31,402 bases of DNA, from the NCBI GenBank assembly GCA_038257035.1, contig JBBSJT010000012.1:1-31402 (forward strand). The letters run 5' to 3'. Made by a program: the position numbers. Of this stretch, positions 24,001-30,000 are shown piece after piece (position 1 is the stretch's first letter; every line of letters starts with the position of its first letter). The stretch is from Chlamydiia bacterium (lineage in GTDB: Bacteria > Chlamydiota > Chlamydiia > Chlamydiales > Parachlamydiaceae).

Positions 24001-27000
24001 CATAACACACATTCCTGCTGGGATATAAGAGGTTATTTGATTGATCGTCATACGGTTCATGAAGAGCTTCAAATTCTTGCAAAGGACATAAACAAAATTA
24101 ATAATTTTATTTGTGAATTATTAATAAGAAAGCCAGAATTCAATAAAACAATAAATTATTTTCATCATGGCATAACATCGATTAATGAGAAATGCGTTAA
24201 ACTTTGGTCTCAAGCAGATGAAATGATTTTTAAATCCGTCCAACATAGTGATCATAAAAATGAAGAATTGTTGCTTTTAGCGGCAAAATTGGATGAAACA
24301 TGTATTTTGAATCACATTCCAAAAGAGCTAATCAATATTTTCGCTATCACAATGTTCCAACTTAAATTAAATGATGTTAATAAGGCTTGTGGAGCCATCT
24401 AAATTAAAATATAAAAAAGGAATTTTATGAACATCAACGGTTTAAGCAGCAACGATATTTTGAATTTTCCAGTTAATAAAATTCACAAAACTTCACGAGA
24501 AAAAGAATTATCAGGCATGGAGTCTTCATACTATGATGGATCTGGGTGGATTGCAAGACTTGAATTTACTAATGATTTTGCAAATTCCATTTTACTTAAA
24601 GTGGAACGTTGCAAAAATGGAGAGGGACAATTAATTGATCGTAACATCATTCGTGATGATCTTCAAATTCTTGCAAAAGATATAAATAAACTTATCACTT
24701 ATGTTTTTGATTTATTAGTTCGAAAACCCTATTTAGATGTTATTCAAAATCGTTTTAATAGGTTAATCACGATAAAAAGTGAATGTGAAAAACTGCAGAT
24801 TAAAGCTGATGAAATGGTTTTTAAATCTGTACAACACGATGATGAAGTCCAAGTTTTGTTATTTTTAGCGACAAATTCAGATGTAAATTCACCTTTAAAT
24901 CAGATTCCAAAAGATTTAATCAATCTTTTCGCTACCACACTCTTCGAAGTTAAATTAGATCAAGCCCTAAAAGACTCCAGAGATATTTAATACACAGCTT
25001 TGTCTCTTCAGACCGATTCATCGGGCTGATTTGGAGTGCGGAGACCTGGCTCCGCTTTGTCGTTCAAATCGACCTGGCGATTTGCAAGCCCGAAAAATCG
25101 GGCTCTTAAACACTTTTTAAGCAGCCCGCCAGGTCGGGCTGAAACAAAGCGGAGCCAGGTCTCCGCACTCCAAATTCGCCCGATAAATCGGGCCGAAGAA
25201 GACAAATTACAACCCCCCTCTCACAATCCTACTGGCAAGATTCGCAAGTACCCCCATTTAATAAAGTATCTATGGAGCAGGCGGAAGGTTCCATCTCCAG
25301 CGGTTTTCTTTCTCTATTGCCTGAATCAATCGATGATTTATTAATCGTACGAAGGTAATAAGTGGTTTTTAGTCCTCGTTCCCATGCTTCTCGATACATA
25401 AACGAGGCTTGTCTTGCATCATTTTCGGATAGAAATAAATTTACCGATTGGGATTGATCGATCCATTTTTGACGAACGGCAGCACACTGAAGCAGCCATG
25501 TCGGCTCTATTTCAAAGGCTGTCTTATAACGGCGTTTTAGTTCATCAGGAATTCGTTCAATTTCTTGGATGGAGCCATCAAAGTATTTTAAATCAGATAA
25601 CATTTCTTTGTCCCAAATACCGGTATCCATTAATTCCTGCACCAAATAAGGGTTGGTACGCACAAAATCTCCTGAAAGATTGGATTTTGCATGAATGTTT
25701 TTATAAGTGGGTTCAATACAGGGCGTTGTGCCCATAATATTGGAAATAGTTGCCGTTGGTGCAATGGCTATGCAATTTGAATTGCGCATGCCTTGTTTTT
25801 TAATTTTTTCTCTTAATCCTTTCCAATCCAATCGACTTAGCCGATCAACCTTAACAGCAATTCCACGCTCTTTTTCCAAAATTTCCAAAGTATCTAACGG
25901 CAATTGCCCCCGATCCCATTTTGAACCTTTAAATGTGGAATAACGGCCACGCTCCAAACTCAAATCAGCAGATGCTGAATAGGCATAAAAAGCAATTGCC
26001 TCTATTATTTCGTCGTTGAATTCCACAGCTTGGTTAGAATCAAATGGAATTTTTCTCATATAAAGAGCATCCTGCATACCCATCACACCAAGGCCGACCG
26101 GTCGATGCTTCATGTTAGCATTTTTTGCAGCCTCTGTCGGGTAATAATTGATATCGATCACATTATCCAACATCCTCATCACAACATTAATGGTCGATTC
26201 TAATTTGGCATGGTCGATAGACCCATCCTGATTCAAATGATTGGGAATATTAATGGAAGCAAGATTGCACACTGCAACTTCGTCACGACTTGTATTAAGG
26301 GTAATTTCTGTGCATAAATTAGAACTATGCACCACCCCAACATGATCTTGTGGGGATCGAATGTTACACGGGTCTTTAAAAGTAATCCAAGGATGACCTG
26401 TTTCAAAAATGGCACCTATCATTTTTTTCCAGAGGGCAAGGATGCGAATTTTATGAGAATAAATTTTGGCTTCATTGGCTAACGCTTCATACTGAAGATA
26501 ACGTTCTTCAAACTTTACACCATATAAATCATGCAGATCGGCCGTTTCATCGGAGCGAAATAGTGTCCAGACTGCATCTTTTGGTAAATTGCCAAGAGAG
26601 ATGCTATGGAGCCGTTTCATAAATAAATCAGGAATCCAAAGGGCTGTATTCATGTTATGTGTGCGTCTGCGATCATCTCCGGTTTCTTTTCGTAAATCAA
26701 GAAAATCTTCTACATCTGAATGCCATAATTCAAGATAACTGCATAAGGCTCCAGGGCGCTTGCCACCTTGGTTGACTGCCACGCAAATGTCGTTAGCAAC
26801 TTTTAGAAAGGGGATTACACCTGACGATTCCCCATTCGTTCCATGGATATGAGAGCCTGAACCCCTTACTGATGTCCACGAACAGCCAAGGCCCCCTGCC
26901 CATTTTGAAAGGGATGAAAATCTCGTCCAAGTCTCTGCGATTTCTTCTATGGAATCTCCGCAATAGAGCAAATAGCAACTTGAAAGTTGTGGCCTGCATG

Positions 27001-30000
27001 TTCCTGAATTAAATAGGGTAGGTGTAGATGAGCAGGCAAGCTTATTTTGATAAATGCGAAAAAATTCTATAGCTCTTTTTTCTTTATTTGATTCCTGTAA
27101 ACTCAAGCCCATCGCCACACGCATCCAAAAGATCTGGGGGGATTCAAGCCTTCGGCTTCCGTTTTCATCTTTAGTAAAAATTAAATAACGATCATACAAA
27201 TTTTGAATGCCAATAAAATCAAATTGCAAATCCGCATAAGGATCAATGGCATCTGCCAATTCCTCAAGATCAAATTTTGCAAGTTTTTTATCTAGCCGTT
27301 TCAATTCTATTCCTAATGGAATGTATTTCAAAAAGGCTTTTTTATGTGCAGCTTTTAGTTGATCAATCCCATCGCTTATTTTCCAGGGCAGAGTTTCTTC
27401 GTAAATATAGGTGAGCAATATGCGAGCTGCAAAAAAACGGCTGTCCGCATCTACATCAAGAAGATTTTTTGCATTTAATATAATTGTTTCTTGCAACTCT
27501 TTGTCTGACAAAGTTTCTGAAATGCTTCTAGTTAGCCTTGCAGTTAACTCATCTTCGTTAAGCGTCAGATTTAATCCAATTTTTGCATAAGAAATGCGCA
27601 GCCTAAGATCCTCTTTAATGGGTGATGTAATGTGATTTATCTCAAGTTCTCTTAAAGCTTGGCGTCTTGCCCGATGCTTTCCATAGGCAACTGCAACTTT
27701 TCCATGGTTGAGTTCAATTAAAAATTTTTCAACCATGTCTTGAAGTTGTTCAATATGAATGAATTTTGCACACTCATTTTTGATCTGATTTTCAATTTCT
27801 TGCTTAATCAGCTTTCCAATTGGTTCCAAGCCAATTTCAACACAAGCCGCATTAACCGCTTTTTCAATTTTGTTGCCATTCCACGCCACAAGGCGCGGTT
27901 TACTTGATTTTGTATGGGGTAAATCGCGACGAATAATATTTGGAAATTCAAAAGATGTAATAGAGTTCATAATCAATTCCTTTATTAAATGAGATCATCT
28001 TCATTCGTATTTTTCATGCTACCGCTCGTCTGATACTCAGTGACTCGAGTTTCAAAAAAGTTTTTTTCTTTTTGAAGAAAAATGACCTCATCAAGCCAAA
28101 GAAATGGATTGATTTTAACAGTTGAAAGAGAGGGGAGTCCAAGACTTGTTAATCGTCGATCTGCATTATAATCAACAAATTCAAGAAAGTCTTTTTGAGT
28201 CATTCCCACCATATTTTCAGGCAAACAATCAAGAACAAATTCTTTTTCAAGCTCTACTCCTTCACGCATGAATTCAACAAGTTCATCTCGAAATGCATCT
28301 GTCCAGATATCAGGATTTTCTTCGATGAGTTTTTCAAGGATGTATCGCCCCAATGCAATGTGGTTTGTTTCGTCGCGTAAAGTATACTGAAACATTTGCC
28401 CGATCCCCGTCATTTTGTTTTGACGGTGTAATGAAAGAATCATGGCAAAAAGGGCATAAAATTGTGTGCCTTCCATGACTTGCGTGATACCAAAAAGTGC
28501 CTTTGCAAACTTTTGTTTATTTTTTGTAATAGTAAGATCAATGCCCATTTTTAATTCCGGCATATGACGTGTGATGTATTCATTTTTCTTTTTAATAGAC
28601 GGTATATCTTGAAATTTAGCGGTGACTTCATCAAGATCAATGTTTAGACTACTTATAATGTGCAAAAGCGAATCCATATGAATGGATTCTTCGGCAATTT
28701 GTCGAAGTGATGCATGTTTAAGTTCTGCTGCAGTCAGGTTGTCTTCGATCACATGCAAGACGCTGTCTCCAACAATGCCTTCAGCTGCTGAAAAGTAACC
28801 TACACCCATCTCAATGATCCAACGTTCGCGCGCATTTAGTTTGTTAGAATTCCACATCGCGCAATCTTTTGTCATGTCGATGACATCAGGCTCCCAATGA
28901 TTGGCCTTCATTTGCTTATAGATGCGGTAGGCTTCATGGTATTTTAGTGGTAGAACATTAAGCTCTGCGCTTCTTGTGCCATTAATGACCATTTTTTCTG
29001 CAAGACGTGCTCTTGCTTTTTCCTTATCTAGGCGAAAGGTGCGGTTTAAAAAGGTATGAACGACATAGCGTCCATCTTCTACTTCGGTAAATTGGTCTAA
29101 GACTTCCATAATGATGATCCTGTTAACGCATGCCATTGCGCGGGTTCATGCATTTAAGGAAAATAGAAAAACAAAAGCCTTCTTAAAATCCTTAAATACA
29201 AGGACATAAAAAGGCGGTGCAGATTGGATGCAGCAAGCTTTTTTTGTCCCATCCTTTCTTTGGCGAGAAAGTAGCCTTAAAAACAGATGTTTTTAAGGGC
29301 TTTGATAGGCGTGAAAAAGCAGGTCTTCTGACTTCGAGGTCATCCTAATTGCCTTACCTTCCCGTTTTAGACTTTGTCTAATATAACAGTGGTAATCAAG
29401 GCTTTCGTCTCTCGTTACAGCGGCGCAACCGCACGGGATTTACACCCGTTTCCCTATTCTCTTATAGCCGTAGCCATAAGCACTTTTTCACATTTTATTT
29501 AGAACTTTAAGTTAAGCCTTTCGAACAAAATTGTCAAGATTTCTCGTTATCTGCTGACGCTTAGTCGCGAAGCGACTAGTCGCTAATTTGGAGTGCGGTG
29601 ACAAGTCACCGCACTCCAGATTAGCGAATTTTCCTAAAGTACAAAAAACAAAGCCCGACAAAGTCGGGCTTTATAAAGACAAATTTATTCGTTAAGAAAA
29701 CTCTATTTTTTCTTCACCAACGACACAACAGTTTCGATGTGGGTGGTTTGCGGGAACATATCAACAGGCTGACACCCTTCGATGGAGTAATTATCTTCTC
29801 CTAACAGTTTCAAGTCTCTTGCAAGAGTTGAAGGCATGCAGGATATGTAAACAATTCGTGAAGGGAGTGCTTTTCTTAGACTTTCGATGACCGAAGCCGT
29901 TAAGCCTTCTCTTGGAGGATTGATAATGACAAAATCTGGGATTATTATCTCTTTTAAAGCATCTTCAACAAGAGCGACAACAAATTTTACATTACTGATC

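Follow-up and report, generated by a model that had tools for sequence, protein, structure and literature searches.

Probable cobalamin OFF-riboswitch ahead of a class Ic-like ribonucleotide reductase operon in a member of the Parachlamydiaceae

In Streptomyces coelicolor, the ribonucleotide reductase (RNR) operon nrdABS is controlled by a B12 riboswitch and NrdJ is the B12-dependent alternative, according to PMC12528414, which cites Borovok et al. (2006, J Bacteriol 188:2512). The window considered here, i.e., the whole analyzed stretch of 31,402 nucleotides from a metagenome-assembled genome (MAG) of the Parachlamydiaceae, carries an nrdB–nrdA operon behind a cobalamin aptamer:

29301–29502, minus strand: cobalamin riboswitch aptamer with the full-length RF00174 architecture, including the peripheral extension
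27985–29109, minus strand: nrdB, small subunit of a class Ic-like RNR (PF00268, Ribonuc_red_sm, 226 bits)
25229–27970 (or 27976), minus strand: nrdA, large subunit of a class I RNR (PF02867, 624.7 bits; PF00317; PF03477)
25149–25166, minus strand: GC-rich terminator-like hairpin about 63 nt beyond the nrdA stop

Judging from sequence, the RNA at 29301–29502 is likely to be a functional cobalamin OFF-riboswitch in the 5' leader of this B12-independent, oxygen-dependent RNR operon. The strong riboswitch (108 bits) that the initial annotation placed before nrdB–nrdA was recovered by an Rfam search of the window (RF00174, 108.3 bits, E 1.7e-26, model positions 1–189 of 189; gathering score 31.5). 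It is the sole Rfam match within the window and the only RF00174 element in the 2.37-Mb genome scanned. The aptamer is located 192 nt upstream of nrdB on the same strand, and its ligand is most likely cobalamin, with adenosylcobalamin (AdoCbl) favoured. Between the nrdB stop and the nrdA start there are 14 nt, and the hairpin at 25149–25166 is the likely end of the operon.

NrdB passes the equivalog model NF005550 (316.9 bits, cut-off 309), and among PDB entries it aligns best with 1syy, 4d8f and 2ani (E 1.4e-75), the class Ic R2 of Chlamydia trachomatis. All six metal ligands align with those of 1syy; in the PDB alignment E110, E141 and H144 are read, with Leu148 at the position of the radical tyrosine. 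As in C. trachomatis R2, the first metal ligand is Glu, the ExxH motifs align and the radical site has no tyrosine, whereas the residue at this site is Phe127 in C. trachomatis. By sequence, the small subunit is class Ic-like, and the former label of class Ia could not be kept. It is about 40% identical to the family's own Phe-type R2, whose gene order is nrdA–nrdB instead of nrdB–nrdA. NrdA consists of an N-terminal ATP-cone and the lgN and lgC domains, retains the ATP-cone, the barrel domain and the C-terminal cysteines, and passes NF005544 (1117.7 bits, cut-off 965). The Leu variant of R2 is not known to have been characterized biochemically, and the two proteins might not form a working RNR, the riboswitch governing some other B12-replaceable function. 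This is very improbable given the conserved ligands, the two equivalog scores, the domains and cysteines retained by NrdA and the wide occurrence of the Leu type among free-living Verrucomicrobiota.

The leader of nrdB contains the following elements:

29509–29537, minus strand: promoter-like element read from the sequence (TTGACA 29537–29532, 17-nt spacer, TAACTT 29514–29509)
29275–29298, minus strand: first expression-platform hairpin, a 10-bp stem immediately 3' of the aptamer
29254–29271, minus strand: second platform hairpin (CUUUCU/AGAAAG, loop CGCCAA)
29160–29215, minus strand: terminator-like hairpin (29215–29177) and U-rich tract (29176–29160) in the minimum free energy (MFE) fold of the leader
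29127–29142, minus strand: small hairpin close to the 5' side of the ribosome-binding site, its loop (UGGC) invariant
29107–29121, minus strand: Shine-Dalgarno (SD) sequence AGGA (29121–29118) and nrdB start ATG (29109–29107)

The element at 29509–29537, which stops a few bases ahead of the aptamer, could act as the promoter. It was missed by a consensus promoter scan because its -10 box is weak; the pattern TTGACA, 17 nt and TAnnnT is kept in all six type-A chlamydial leaders. Although the nrdB open reading frame extends over 27985–29136, the alignment of six leaders places the conserved start at 29109, not at the in-frame ATG at 29136. The MFE fold of the leader has a z-score of -4.7 relative to shuffled sequences. 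Covariation was assessed in 11 leaders (six chlamydial and five verrucomicrobial): the first platform hairpin has four pairs with three to five compensatory double changes and none broken, and the second has six pairs, none broken, with compensatory changes in two. The loop CGCCAA of the second hairpin is identical in 8/8 leaders from two phyla, and the GCCA within it is complementary to the UGGC loop of the small hairpin.

The hairpin with the U-tract at 29160–29215 is a candidate for the read-out of the switch; it was not flagged by a simple terminator scan. It is found again in leaders of relatives, but in some of them the T-tract is weaker, and the verrucomicrobial leader L073, unlike that of the window, lacks the hairpin entirely. 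For these reasons, termination is not a universal read-out. Alternatively, the OFF-switch could be purely translational, with the ligand causing occlusion of the SD sequence and the hairpin with its U-tract not serving as a regulated terminator. Besides the variation of the terminator among relatives, this mechanism is favoured by the small conserved hairpin adjoining the SD and by RNAalifold, which predicts that in the six chlamydial leaders the SD region pairs with a CUUCAG-like stretch further upstream (seven pairs, each formed in four to six of the six leaders). However, compensatory changes are missing from the long-range helix, the anti-SD pairing read from the window sequence is only about 4–5 bp, and the window's own hairpin is strong and followed by a long U-rich tract, so that exclusively translational control is conceivable but rather doubtful. 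No definite antiterminator or anti-SD switching pairing was identified in the leader.

The operon belongs to a segment of variable occurrence:

21940–29726, no strand assigned: indel island with four Pfam-less ORFs and the riboswitch–nrdB–nrdA cassette

The four ORFs (22114–24990) have neither Pfam nor NCBIfam matches. In G052, a genome of the same genus, about 1.4 kb takes the place of the island. By DNA comparison, both flanks are colinear with contig C15 of G052 (65–74% identity), and the left flank also matches G053 (74–80%). NrdB is 79–91% identical to many non-chlamydial proteins among the matches listed, nearly all of them from Verrucomicrobiota, and the leader, including the expression platform, is conserved between this phylum and the window genome. 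RF00174 was found upstream in 11 of 20 scanned loci, six of these being verrucomicrobial, and was absent from nine. Verrucomicrobial cassettes of this kind are known from Chthoniobacter flavus Ellin428 (NZ_ABVL01000027, L139) and from the MAG loci L068, L069, L073, L075 and L079; they have the same beta-subunit type, platform hairpins and invariant loops as the window, but their hosts are free-living soil and freshwater bacteria and not an intracellular chlamydia. Within the family sample (73 genomes, probably Parachlamydiaceae), only six carry the cassette. It probably entered a few Parachlamydiaceae lineages together with its leader by lateral transfer, the direction of which is unrooted.

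Since the genome is a MAG of 210 contigs and its NrdB is close to verrucomicrobial proteins, mis-binning of a verrucomicrobial contig was considered, in which case the riboswitch–nrdBA unit and the class II enzyme would come from separate organisms. The colinear flanks, the GC content (0.362 for the contig, 0.361 for the genome) and the presence of the cassette in family genomes that are closed or nearly so (G047, for instance, has it on a 3.1-Mb contig) make this extremely unlikely.

The class II enzyme is encoded on another contig:

G000:C56:7543–9552, minus strand: gene of a class II RNR (RTPR) of 670 aa (TIGR02505)

The three Pfam matches of this protein are all below cut-off, as noted initially, while the NCBIfam equivalog TIGR02505, which also covers the RTPR of Lactobacillus leichmannii (1l1l), matches end to end with 802 bits (cut-off 340). 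The protein is 84–93% identical to 119 further proteins among the matches listed; the top listed one, 99% identical and given without source, probably represents the window genome itself. Four of the 120 listed matches bear NCBI's RTPR name, three of them from Parachlamydiaceae. In sequence terms it is an ordinary, family-wide RTPR and not the very divergent enzyme initially supposed. Like the L. leichmannii enzyme, it is a monomeric class II reductase by alignment; C98, N346, C348, E350, C359, C662 and C667 align with the catalytic and C-terminal redox residues of 1l1l (five cysteines with the active-site Asn and Glu), so that all catalytic cysteines, which had been left unchecked, are present. 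It is shorter (670 vs 739 aa), was 26% identical to Lactobacillus RTPR in an earlier Swiss-Prot comparison, and matches 1l1l in three local stretches of 22.6–45.9 bits each (overall E 4.8e-28). No Rfam match was found around its gene at E<=1.

The cofactor of RTPR could be made by a PduO-type adenosyltransferase encoded without a riboswitch on contig C210, which is colinear with a same-genus genome. Its presence agrees with the initial annotation. The term "eukaryote-like" only reflects the fact that human MMAB is itself a PduO-type enzyme; the protein scores well above the threshold of the bacterial model TIGR00636 (188 bits, cut-off 108). The reported lack of cobalamin synthesis is upheld for the two families searched, CobS and CbiB/CobD, neither of which was detected in the genome (95.8% complete); searches for NrdD and NrdR were likewise negative. 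A candidate B12 importer is a DUF6580 membrane protein whose predicted fold resembles those of ECF S-components and of BtuM (8c7p, 8ovv), a vitamin B12 transporter of the solitary S-component-like kind. These are the best Foldseek matches of its model (pLDDT 92.3; TM 0.54–0.61, probability <=0.97), with weak E-values of 0.27–1.5, and no PDB chain is similar to it in sequence. Its gene has no riboswitch in the window genome, while in the relative G057 it stands behind an AdoCbl riboswitch (RF01482, 56.2 bits).

Among the 73 family genomes, the cobalamin riboswitch is present in 37, a higher frequency than the 7 of 31 given earlier, RTPR scores over cut-off in 55, the adenosyltransferase occurs in 56 and class I RNR in 42; RTPR is the sole RNR detected in 27. 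The riboswitch immediately precedes the class I operon in 25 genomes; RTPR over cut-off occurs in 22 of them and the adenosyltransferase in 23. In 17 genomes the class I operon lacks the riboswitch, and RTPR is missing from 11 of these and the adenosyltransferase from 14; the genomes are related and not independent, and these counts therefore overstate the support. Re-scanning six of the 17 upstream regions at E<=1 gave no match. Exceptions occur: in G064–G066 (98–99% complete) a class I operon coexists with RTPR and the adenosyltransferase, yet the riboswitch is absent; G042 has the riboswitch before nrdB and RTPR was not found; G048 and G063 are without the adenosyltransferase. Cobalamin riboswitches precede three unrelated beta-subunit types (Leu-Ic, Phe-Ic and Tyr-Ia), and the Phe-Ic aptamers are only 47–49% identical to those of types A and C, non-nrd and verrucomicrobial ones.

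This pattern bears on whether the cassette, as a recent verrucomicrobial import, could be a passenger whose aptamer, though intact, confers no adaptive regulation on its chlamydial host, for instance if intracellular AdoCbl were permanently saturating or permanently absent. The close verrucomicrobial kinship of NrdB and leader, the indel absent from G052 and the small number of carriers speak for it. The leader, however, has stayed intact with compensatory changes in six chlamydial genomes of different genera, two further class I types of the family also stand behind cobalamin riboswitches, and riboswitch presence tracks that of RTPR and the adenosyltransferase; a mere passenger is unlikely.

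Under the preferred reading, a B12-responsive OFF-switch, corrinoid obtained from the host cell would be adenosylated, and AdoCbl would both activate RTPR and bind the nrdB leader. The ligand-bound leader would then halt nrdBA expression, in this genome most likely by premature termination at 29215–29160, to which occlusion of the ribosome-binding site possibly adds. When B12 is scarce, the leader would be read through and the class Ic-like enzyme could make the dNTPs. This logic, repression of the B12-independent RNR by B12, is well supported by comparison. Of the initial B12-switch interpretation, it is the part that stands, through the family co-occurrence; besides the class Ia label and the divergent RTPR, the novelty was overstated, because the riboswitch–nrdB–nrdA unit occurs in free-living Verrucomicrobiota and the principle is published for Streptomyces (cited in PMC12528414). 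The locus points to chlamydial DNA synthesis leaning on host-derived B12.

Streptomyces is free-living and synthesizes its own B12, unlike the chlamydial genome, where CobS and CbiB were not found. The pair is class Ia with NrdJ in Streptomyces and here the class Ic-like Leu variant with monomeric RTPR; unlike nrdABS, the chlamydial operon has two genes and no nrdS-type regulator, NrdR being likewise not found in the genome. In both systems a cobalamin riboswitch leads the class I operon, and the gene of an AdoCbl-dependent class II enzyme lies at another locus that has no riboswitch. In Streptomyces the B12-independent isozyme is repressed by B12, as it would be here; the same regulatory logic is already known from free-living bacteria.

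The cobalamin riboswitch and the ribonucleotide reductase (RNR) operon behind it are arranged in the window as follows, listed from the upstream side.
29703-30989: rlmD, upstream of the riboswitch and nrdBA, with its own terminator (TIGR00479, 324.6 bits)
29537-29532, minus strand: promoter-like element TTGACA, followed by a 17-nt spacer and TAACTT, before the aptamer
29301-29502, minus strand: cobalamin riboswitch RF00174 (108.3 bits, E 1.7e-26, model positions 1-189 of 189)
29215-29177, minus strand: intrinsic-terminator-like hairpin (hairpin 3 of the leader), with a U-rich tract directly after it at 29176-29160
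27985-29136, minus strand: nrdB open reading frame (PF00268, 226 bits; NF005550, 316.9 bits, cut-off 309)
25229-27970, minus strand: nrdA with an ATP-cone (PF02867, 624.7 bits; NF005544, 1117.7 bits, cut-off 965)
25149-25166, minus strand: terminator-like GC-rich 18-nt hairpin GCGGAGACCTGGCTCCGC, 3' of nrdA

The presence of a cobalamin riboswitch upstream of nrdB-nrdA, proposed in the initial annotation, is confirmed. The full model is matched (the gathering score of RF00174 is 31.5 bits), this is the only RF00174 match in the 2,366,241 bases and 210 contigs of the genome (95.8% complete, 0.7% contaminated), and the window has no other Rfam match. In the alignment to the RF00174 consensus, the ACCACUG, GGGAA, GCCGCUGUAA and AGACCUGC blocks are all intact; the CCACUG stretch in the aptamer core belongs to the B12 box. 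The aptamer lies 192 nt from nrdB on the same strand, in the position of the 5' leader of a B12-related gene, and we infer a corrinoid as its ligand. This aptamer shows the complete RF00174 architecture including the peripheral extension, and such aptamers are usually selective for adenosylcobalamin (AdoCbl). Such selectivity would fit sensing of the cofactor of RTPR, the B12-dependent class II RNR encoded on contig C56 of the same genome.

The conserved start of nrdB, according to the alignment with five relatives, is at 29109, behind AGGA at 29121-29118, and nrdA begins 14 nt past the nrdB stop. The arrangement of TTGACA, 17-nt spacer and TAACTT is kept in all six chlamydial genomes bearing the riboswitch-nrdB-nrdA cassette (type A below); the promoter scan did not flag this element. 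Four hairpins lie after the aptamer and ahead of the start codon, conserved and covarying ones among them. For the 226-nt leader the folding energy is -67.1 kcal/mol, versus -46.4 +/- 4.4 for its shuffles (z = -4.7). All pairs of hairpins 1 and 2 are kept in 11 leaders (6 chlamydial and 5 verrucomicrobial), and four positions of hairpin 1 carry 3-5 compensatory double changes among them. Hairpin 3 was not flagged by the terminator scan; some relatives have a weaker U-tract behind it, and the verrucomicrobial leader L073 lacks the element. The small hairpin 4 adjoins the Shine-Dalgarno (SD) sequence of nrdB. Its loop UGGC (29132-29135), invariant across chlamydial and verrucomicrobial leaders, is complementary to the likewise invariant GCCA of the hairpin 2 loop (29260-29265), and the two loops may form a contact near the ribosome-binding site. 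An upstream anti-SD pairing, which shows no covariation, is proposed by RNAalifold as well; a search of the leader by eye for a kissing-loop or antiterminator pairing identified none. Given the platform hairpins, the terminator-like hairpin with its U-tract and the uncovarying anti-SD pairing, we commit to the reading of an OFF switch, which in this genome would be read out mainly by termination, possibly together with SD occlusion.

Two repeats accompany the operon. A hairpin identical to GCGGAGACCTGGCTCCGC also occurs at 25038-25055 on the plus strand, so that the pair is terminator-like for both convergent genes. A near-perfect palindrome with a 20-bp stem (29580-29627), located between the terminator of rlmD and the promoter of nrdBA, belongs to a dispersed repeat found again, in part or in full, on 9 further contigs.

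The small subunit had been labelled class Ia, and this assignment does not hold: the protein has Leu148 and Glu110 instead of the radical Tyr and the Asp first ligand. The best PDB matches of NrdB are 1syy, 4d8f and 2ani (E 1.4e-75), which are class Ic R2 structures of Chlamydia trachomatis. Residues E110, E141, H144 and L148 align to E89, E120, H123 and F127 of 1syy. An R2 fold, a Glu as first metal ligand and a non-tyrosine radical site are thus combined in one protein, as in class Ic (R2c). It differs from canonical class Ic R2, which has Phe at the radical site, and from the type C class I proteins of the family, which have Tyr and Asp in the columns of Leu148 and Glu110.

The B12-related genes elsewhere in the genome are as follows.
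C56:7543-9552: RTPR (TIGR02505, 802.1 bits, cut-off 340.05; residues 1-670 on profile positions 1-724)
C210:594-1109: PduO-type ATP:cob(I)alamin adenosyltransferase (TIGR00636, 187.9 bits, cut-off 108.45; PF01923, 209.8 bits)
C153:54-398, within C153:3-443 at a contig edge: B12-binding domain fragment, a mutase-like C-terminus (PF02310, 70 bits)

The class II gene had been described as passing no Pfam model and as very divergent. The former stands, since its three Pfam matches are all under the cut-off; the latter does not, in view of the end-to-end TIGR02505 match and of listed relatives 84-93% identical to it (119 proteins; the top row of the list, 99% identical and given without source, is probably the RTPR of this genome itself). 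The NCBI name of RTPR stands on 4 of the 120 listed rows, 3 of them Parachlamydiaceae. These names also underlie the assignment of the family surveyed below, probably Parachlamydiaceae. The radical-site cysteines, left open in the initial annotation, all align with those of the RTPR structure 1l1l: C348, C98/C359, N346/E350 and C662/C667 correspond to C408, C119/C419, N406/E410 and C731/C736. These are, in that order, the thiyl-radical Cys, the redox Cys pair, Asn and Glu of the active site, and the two Cys of the C-terminus. AdoCbl-dependent reduction of NTPs by this enzyme is a prediction from sequence.

The adenosyltransferase gene is native, since its small contig C210 is colinear with a same-genus genome (71-79% DNA identity). 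Searches of this 95.8%-complete genome returned no CobS, no CbiB/CobD, no NrdD, no NrdR and no match to the catalytic domain of methylmalonyl-CoA mutase (PF01642). The GC content of the B12-binding fragment on C153 (0.343) is unremarkable; only 5 of the 73 family genomes, each a MAG in 130-400 contigs, have a PF02310 match over the cut-off, and the fragment is thus probably foreign, a binning contaminant. RTPR therefore looks like the sole native B12 enzyme. On the same contig, the tail of ORF C153:3336-3923 resembles a Bacteroidota secretion-sorting domain.

The relatives of the cassette lie mostly outside the Chlamydiota. With the NrdB of five chlamydial MAG loci the window protein shares 89-94% identity, and with that of the other 75 loci 79-91% (80 loci were retained of 278 relatives found); nearly all of the 75 are titled Verrucomicrobiota and three Pseudomonadota, and Chthoniobacter flavus Ellin428 shows 84%. 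RF00174 is located upstream of nrdB in 11 of 20 loci scanned, 6 of them verrucomicrobial, and the whole leader, the platform included, can be aligned across the two phyla. A quick IQ-TREE phylogeny of NrdB places the chlamydial sequences in a single clade (SH-aLRT 96) within an unresolved verrucomicrobial base. With the type A group unresolved at its base, a very long branch to the outgroup and the root unsettled, the tree gives neither donor nor direction. GC contents (nrdA 0.39, nrdB 0.385, genome 0.361, native RTPR 0.41) are uninformative on lateral transfer.

In the same-genus genome G052 the flanks are colinear, and about 1.4 kb takes the place of 21940-29726, which holds the cassette and four ORFs; in G053, also of this genus, a contig breaks at the site. 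The four ORFs (22114-24990) have no Pfam or NCBIfam match. The final two, at 23815-24402 and 24427-24990, have the look of paralogues and share, among other stretches, LQILAKDINK and KSVQH, and the 29580-29627 palindrome lies about 100-150 nt inside the right-hand edge of this indel island. G052 has a single unrelated ORF of 364 aa at the site. Mis-binning of contig C12 is rejected on the ground of synteny with the same-genus genomes. The cassette with its switch appears to have moved as one unit between Verrucomicrobiota and a few chlamydial lineages, with transfer into the latter as the likely direction, given its presence in only 6 of the 73 family genomes.

The survey covered 73 family genomes, this one included; they are related, so its counts are descriptive and do not constitute a statistical test. 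RF00174 is found at 44 places in 37 genomes (36 over the cut-off), RTPR over the cut-off in 55 and the adenosyltransferase in 56. The R2 family is present in 42 genomes according to two independent queries; NrdD is found in 0 of 73. Three types of class I operon occur.
Type A (as in the window): Glu + Leu, order nrdB-nrdA, riboswitch in 6 of 6 genomes
Type B (canonical chlamydial class Ic): Glu + Phe, order nrdA-nrdB, riboswitch in 3 of 7 genomes
Type C (class Ia): Asp + Tyr, order nrdB-nrdA (from the four loci with both genes matched, in G013, G018, G021 and G033), riboswitch in 16 of 29 genomes

By FastTree and pairwise identities, a comparison of low information, the type B aptamers are 47-49% identical to those of types A and C and of the non-nrd and verrucomicrobial groups, and the type A aptamers are 76% identical to the verrucomicrobial ones. 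Among the class I small subunits of the family, the type C nrdB (for example L010:1872-2846, plus strand) is the most frequent; its motifs FFAASDGIV and ENIHSE.YSLLI are typical of eukaryotic R2. Three types of class I operon behind cobalamin riboswitches in one family show that the same regulatory solution was reached or imported repeatedly.

By comparison of coordinates, the riboswitch is directly upstream of the class I operon in 25 genomes. RTPR passes the cut-off in 22 of these (G025 and G062 have fragments, G042 none), and the adenosyltransferase is present in 23, being missing in G048 and G063. The closed genomes G058, G061, G067 and G068 each combine a riboswitch-led nrdBA operon with RTPR. 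The class I operon lacks a riboswitch in 17 genomes, with RTPR absent from 11 and the adenosyltransferase from 14; rescanning of the upstream regions of 6 of these 17 operons at E<=1 gave no match. Exceptions among the 17 are G064-G066, which carry both RTPR and adenosyltransferase, and G013, G014 and G016, which have RTPR-like genes of 505-638 bits and no adenosyltransferase. The profile match of the latter frames (G013:C58:11016-12914, G014:C4:8227-10149 and G016:C199:2689-4539) ends at position 690-691 of 724, so the C-terminal cysteine tail is seemingly absent. The class Ia operon of these genomes is unregulated, and their RTPR-like genes may be in decay or have taken on another role.

No R2 at all is found in 31 of the 73 genomes, 27 of which have RTPR over the cut-off. 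Genomes with RTPR only include G057 (one contig, 97% complete), G019, G037, G046, G056, G069 and the same-genus G052 and G053. In four genomes of few, long contigs RTPR is split by frameshifts or TGA stops (G009:C1:1218878-1220834, G043:C10:45548-47564, G062:C13:21017-23032 and G047:C1:396332-398339), by assembly error or as a real pseudogene.

Downstream genes were also examined at the 19 family riboswitches located away from a class I RNR operon (loci L035-L053). Behind 17 of them lies a membrane-anchored protein of the AAA+/P-loop kind, about 590-760 aa long (for example L050:1844-3835, minus strand; L040:2033-3961, minus strand; L037:415-2178, plus strand). In 15 loci an open frame was called, 70-360 nt from the riboswitch, one of these being a 159-aa piece cut by a contig end and weakly matched; in the other two, L035 and L036, the protein is represented by tblastn matches only. 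The protein has no Pfam family over the cut-off, and the protein atlas returned generic AAA/Clp-like clusters only. Next comes an ORF of 342-378 aa at 10 of the 19 loci; the one scanned encodes ferrochelatase (PF00762, 321 bits). The AAA+ relatives in the window genome (C23:22060-23500 and on C77) are distant, at 20-27% identity, and no riboswitch is found at either. The AAA+ protein would be a second, unexplained member of the cobalamin regulon.

DUF6580 is a small membrane protein of six or seven helices, encoded in this genome at C135:3403-3876 (L058:795-1319) and found in 20 of 73 family genomes. In G057 its gene (L047:3500-4045, minus strand) follows an AdoCbl riboswitch of another family, RF01482 (L047:4037-4163, 56.2 bits), which occurs in G057 only among the 73. 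This is the one family genome with a riboswitch before DUF6580; the copy in the window genome has none. The predicted model (pLDDT 92.3, 21-sequence alignment), with H24 and C130 invariant in the 21 sequences, has as its best Foldseek matches ECF S-components and BtuM (8c7p, 8ovv), weak ones at E 0.27-1.5, with TM 0.54-0.61 and probability up to 0.97. A sequence search of the PDB gave no match at E<=10. Given the weak E-values and the copy without a riboswitch, DUF6580 is only a candidate B12 importer, with an S-component-like predicted fold. Both uncharacterised membrane proteins are candidates for B12 uptake or handling.

The initial proposal of a B12-sensing switch between the two reductases is essentially right, with regulation, ligand and uptake as its inferred parts: from the sequence, nrdBA would be regulated by B12 in this genome. 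What is added is the family picture of RTPR as the core RNR with riboswitch-controlled class I back-ups of three kinds, together with two B12-regulon candidates. RTPR is present in 55 of 73 genomes and apparently the sole RNR in 27, so these symbionts should need B12 taken from the host to make DNA, a host-symbiont dependency open to test. A bolder reading, advanced tentatively and held to be somewhat improbable as a whole, makes host-derived AdoCbl the master variable of DNA-precursor supply in this chlamydial family. RTPR would be the core RNR (the sole one detected in 27 of 73 genomes, some of these closed or nearly so), the class I enzymes of three separate origins would be riboswitched back-ups for B12 starvation, and the remaining riboswitches would control the membrane-anchored AAA+ protein of a new host-B12 route. 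The B12 status of the amoeba host would then gate replication of the chlamydiae, in contradiction to PMC2667541, an older comparative-genomics study in which Chlamydiae were stated to use neither cobalt nor B12.

That statement derives from a 2009 survey of 7 genomes, which lists no Co/B12-using Chlamydiae (PMC2667541, accessible part). According to the available part of PMC9816063, obligate intracellular chlamydiae are usually described as users of class Ic RNR, with class III in their ancestors; that chlamydial ancestors had class III and class Ic RNR and lost cobalamin synthesis is inferred there, and class II RNR and riboswitches are not mentioned in that part for chlamydiae. The literature searched contained no description of a cobalamin riboswitch or class II RNR in this group. 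Repression of the B12-independent isozyme by B12 is in itself a textbook mechanism. That a B12 riboswitch controls the class I RNR where a class II enzyme is also present is an established finding in Streptomyces (nrdABS), and other bacteria are mentioned as further cases (PMC12528414, citing Borovok 2006 and Vitreschak 2003). The genome described here, with the riboswitch on the class I operon and RTPR free of one, has the gene layout of the Streptomyces paradigm.
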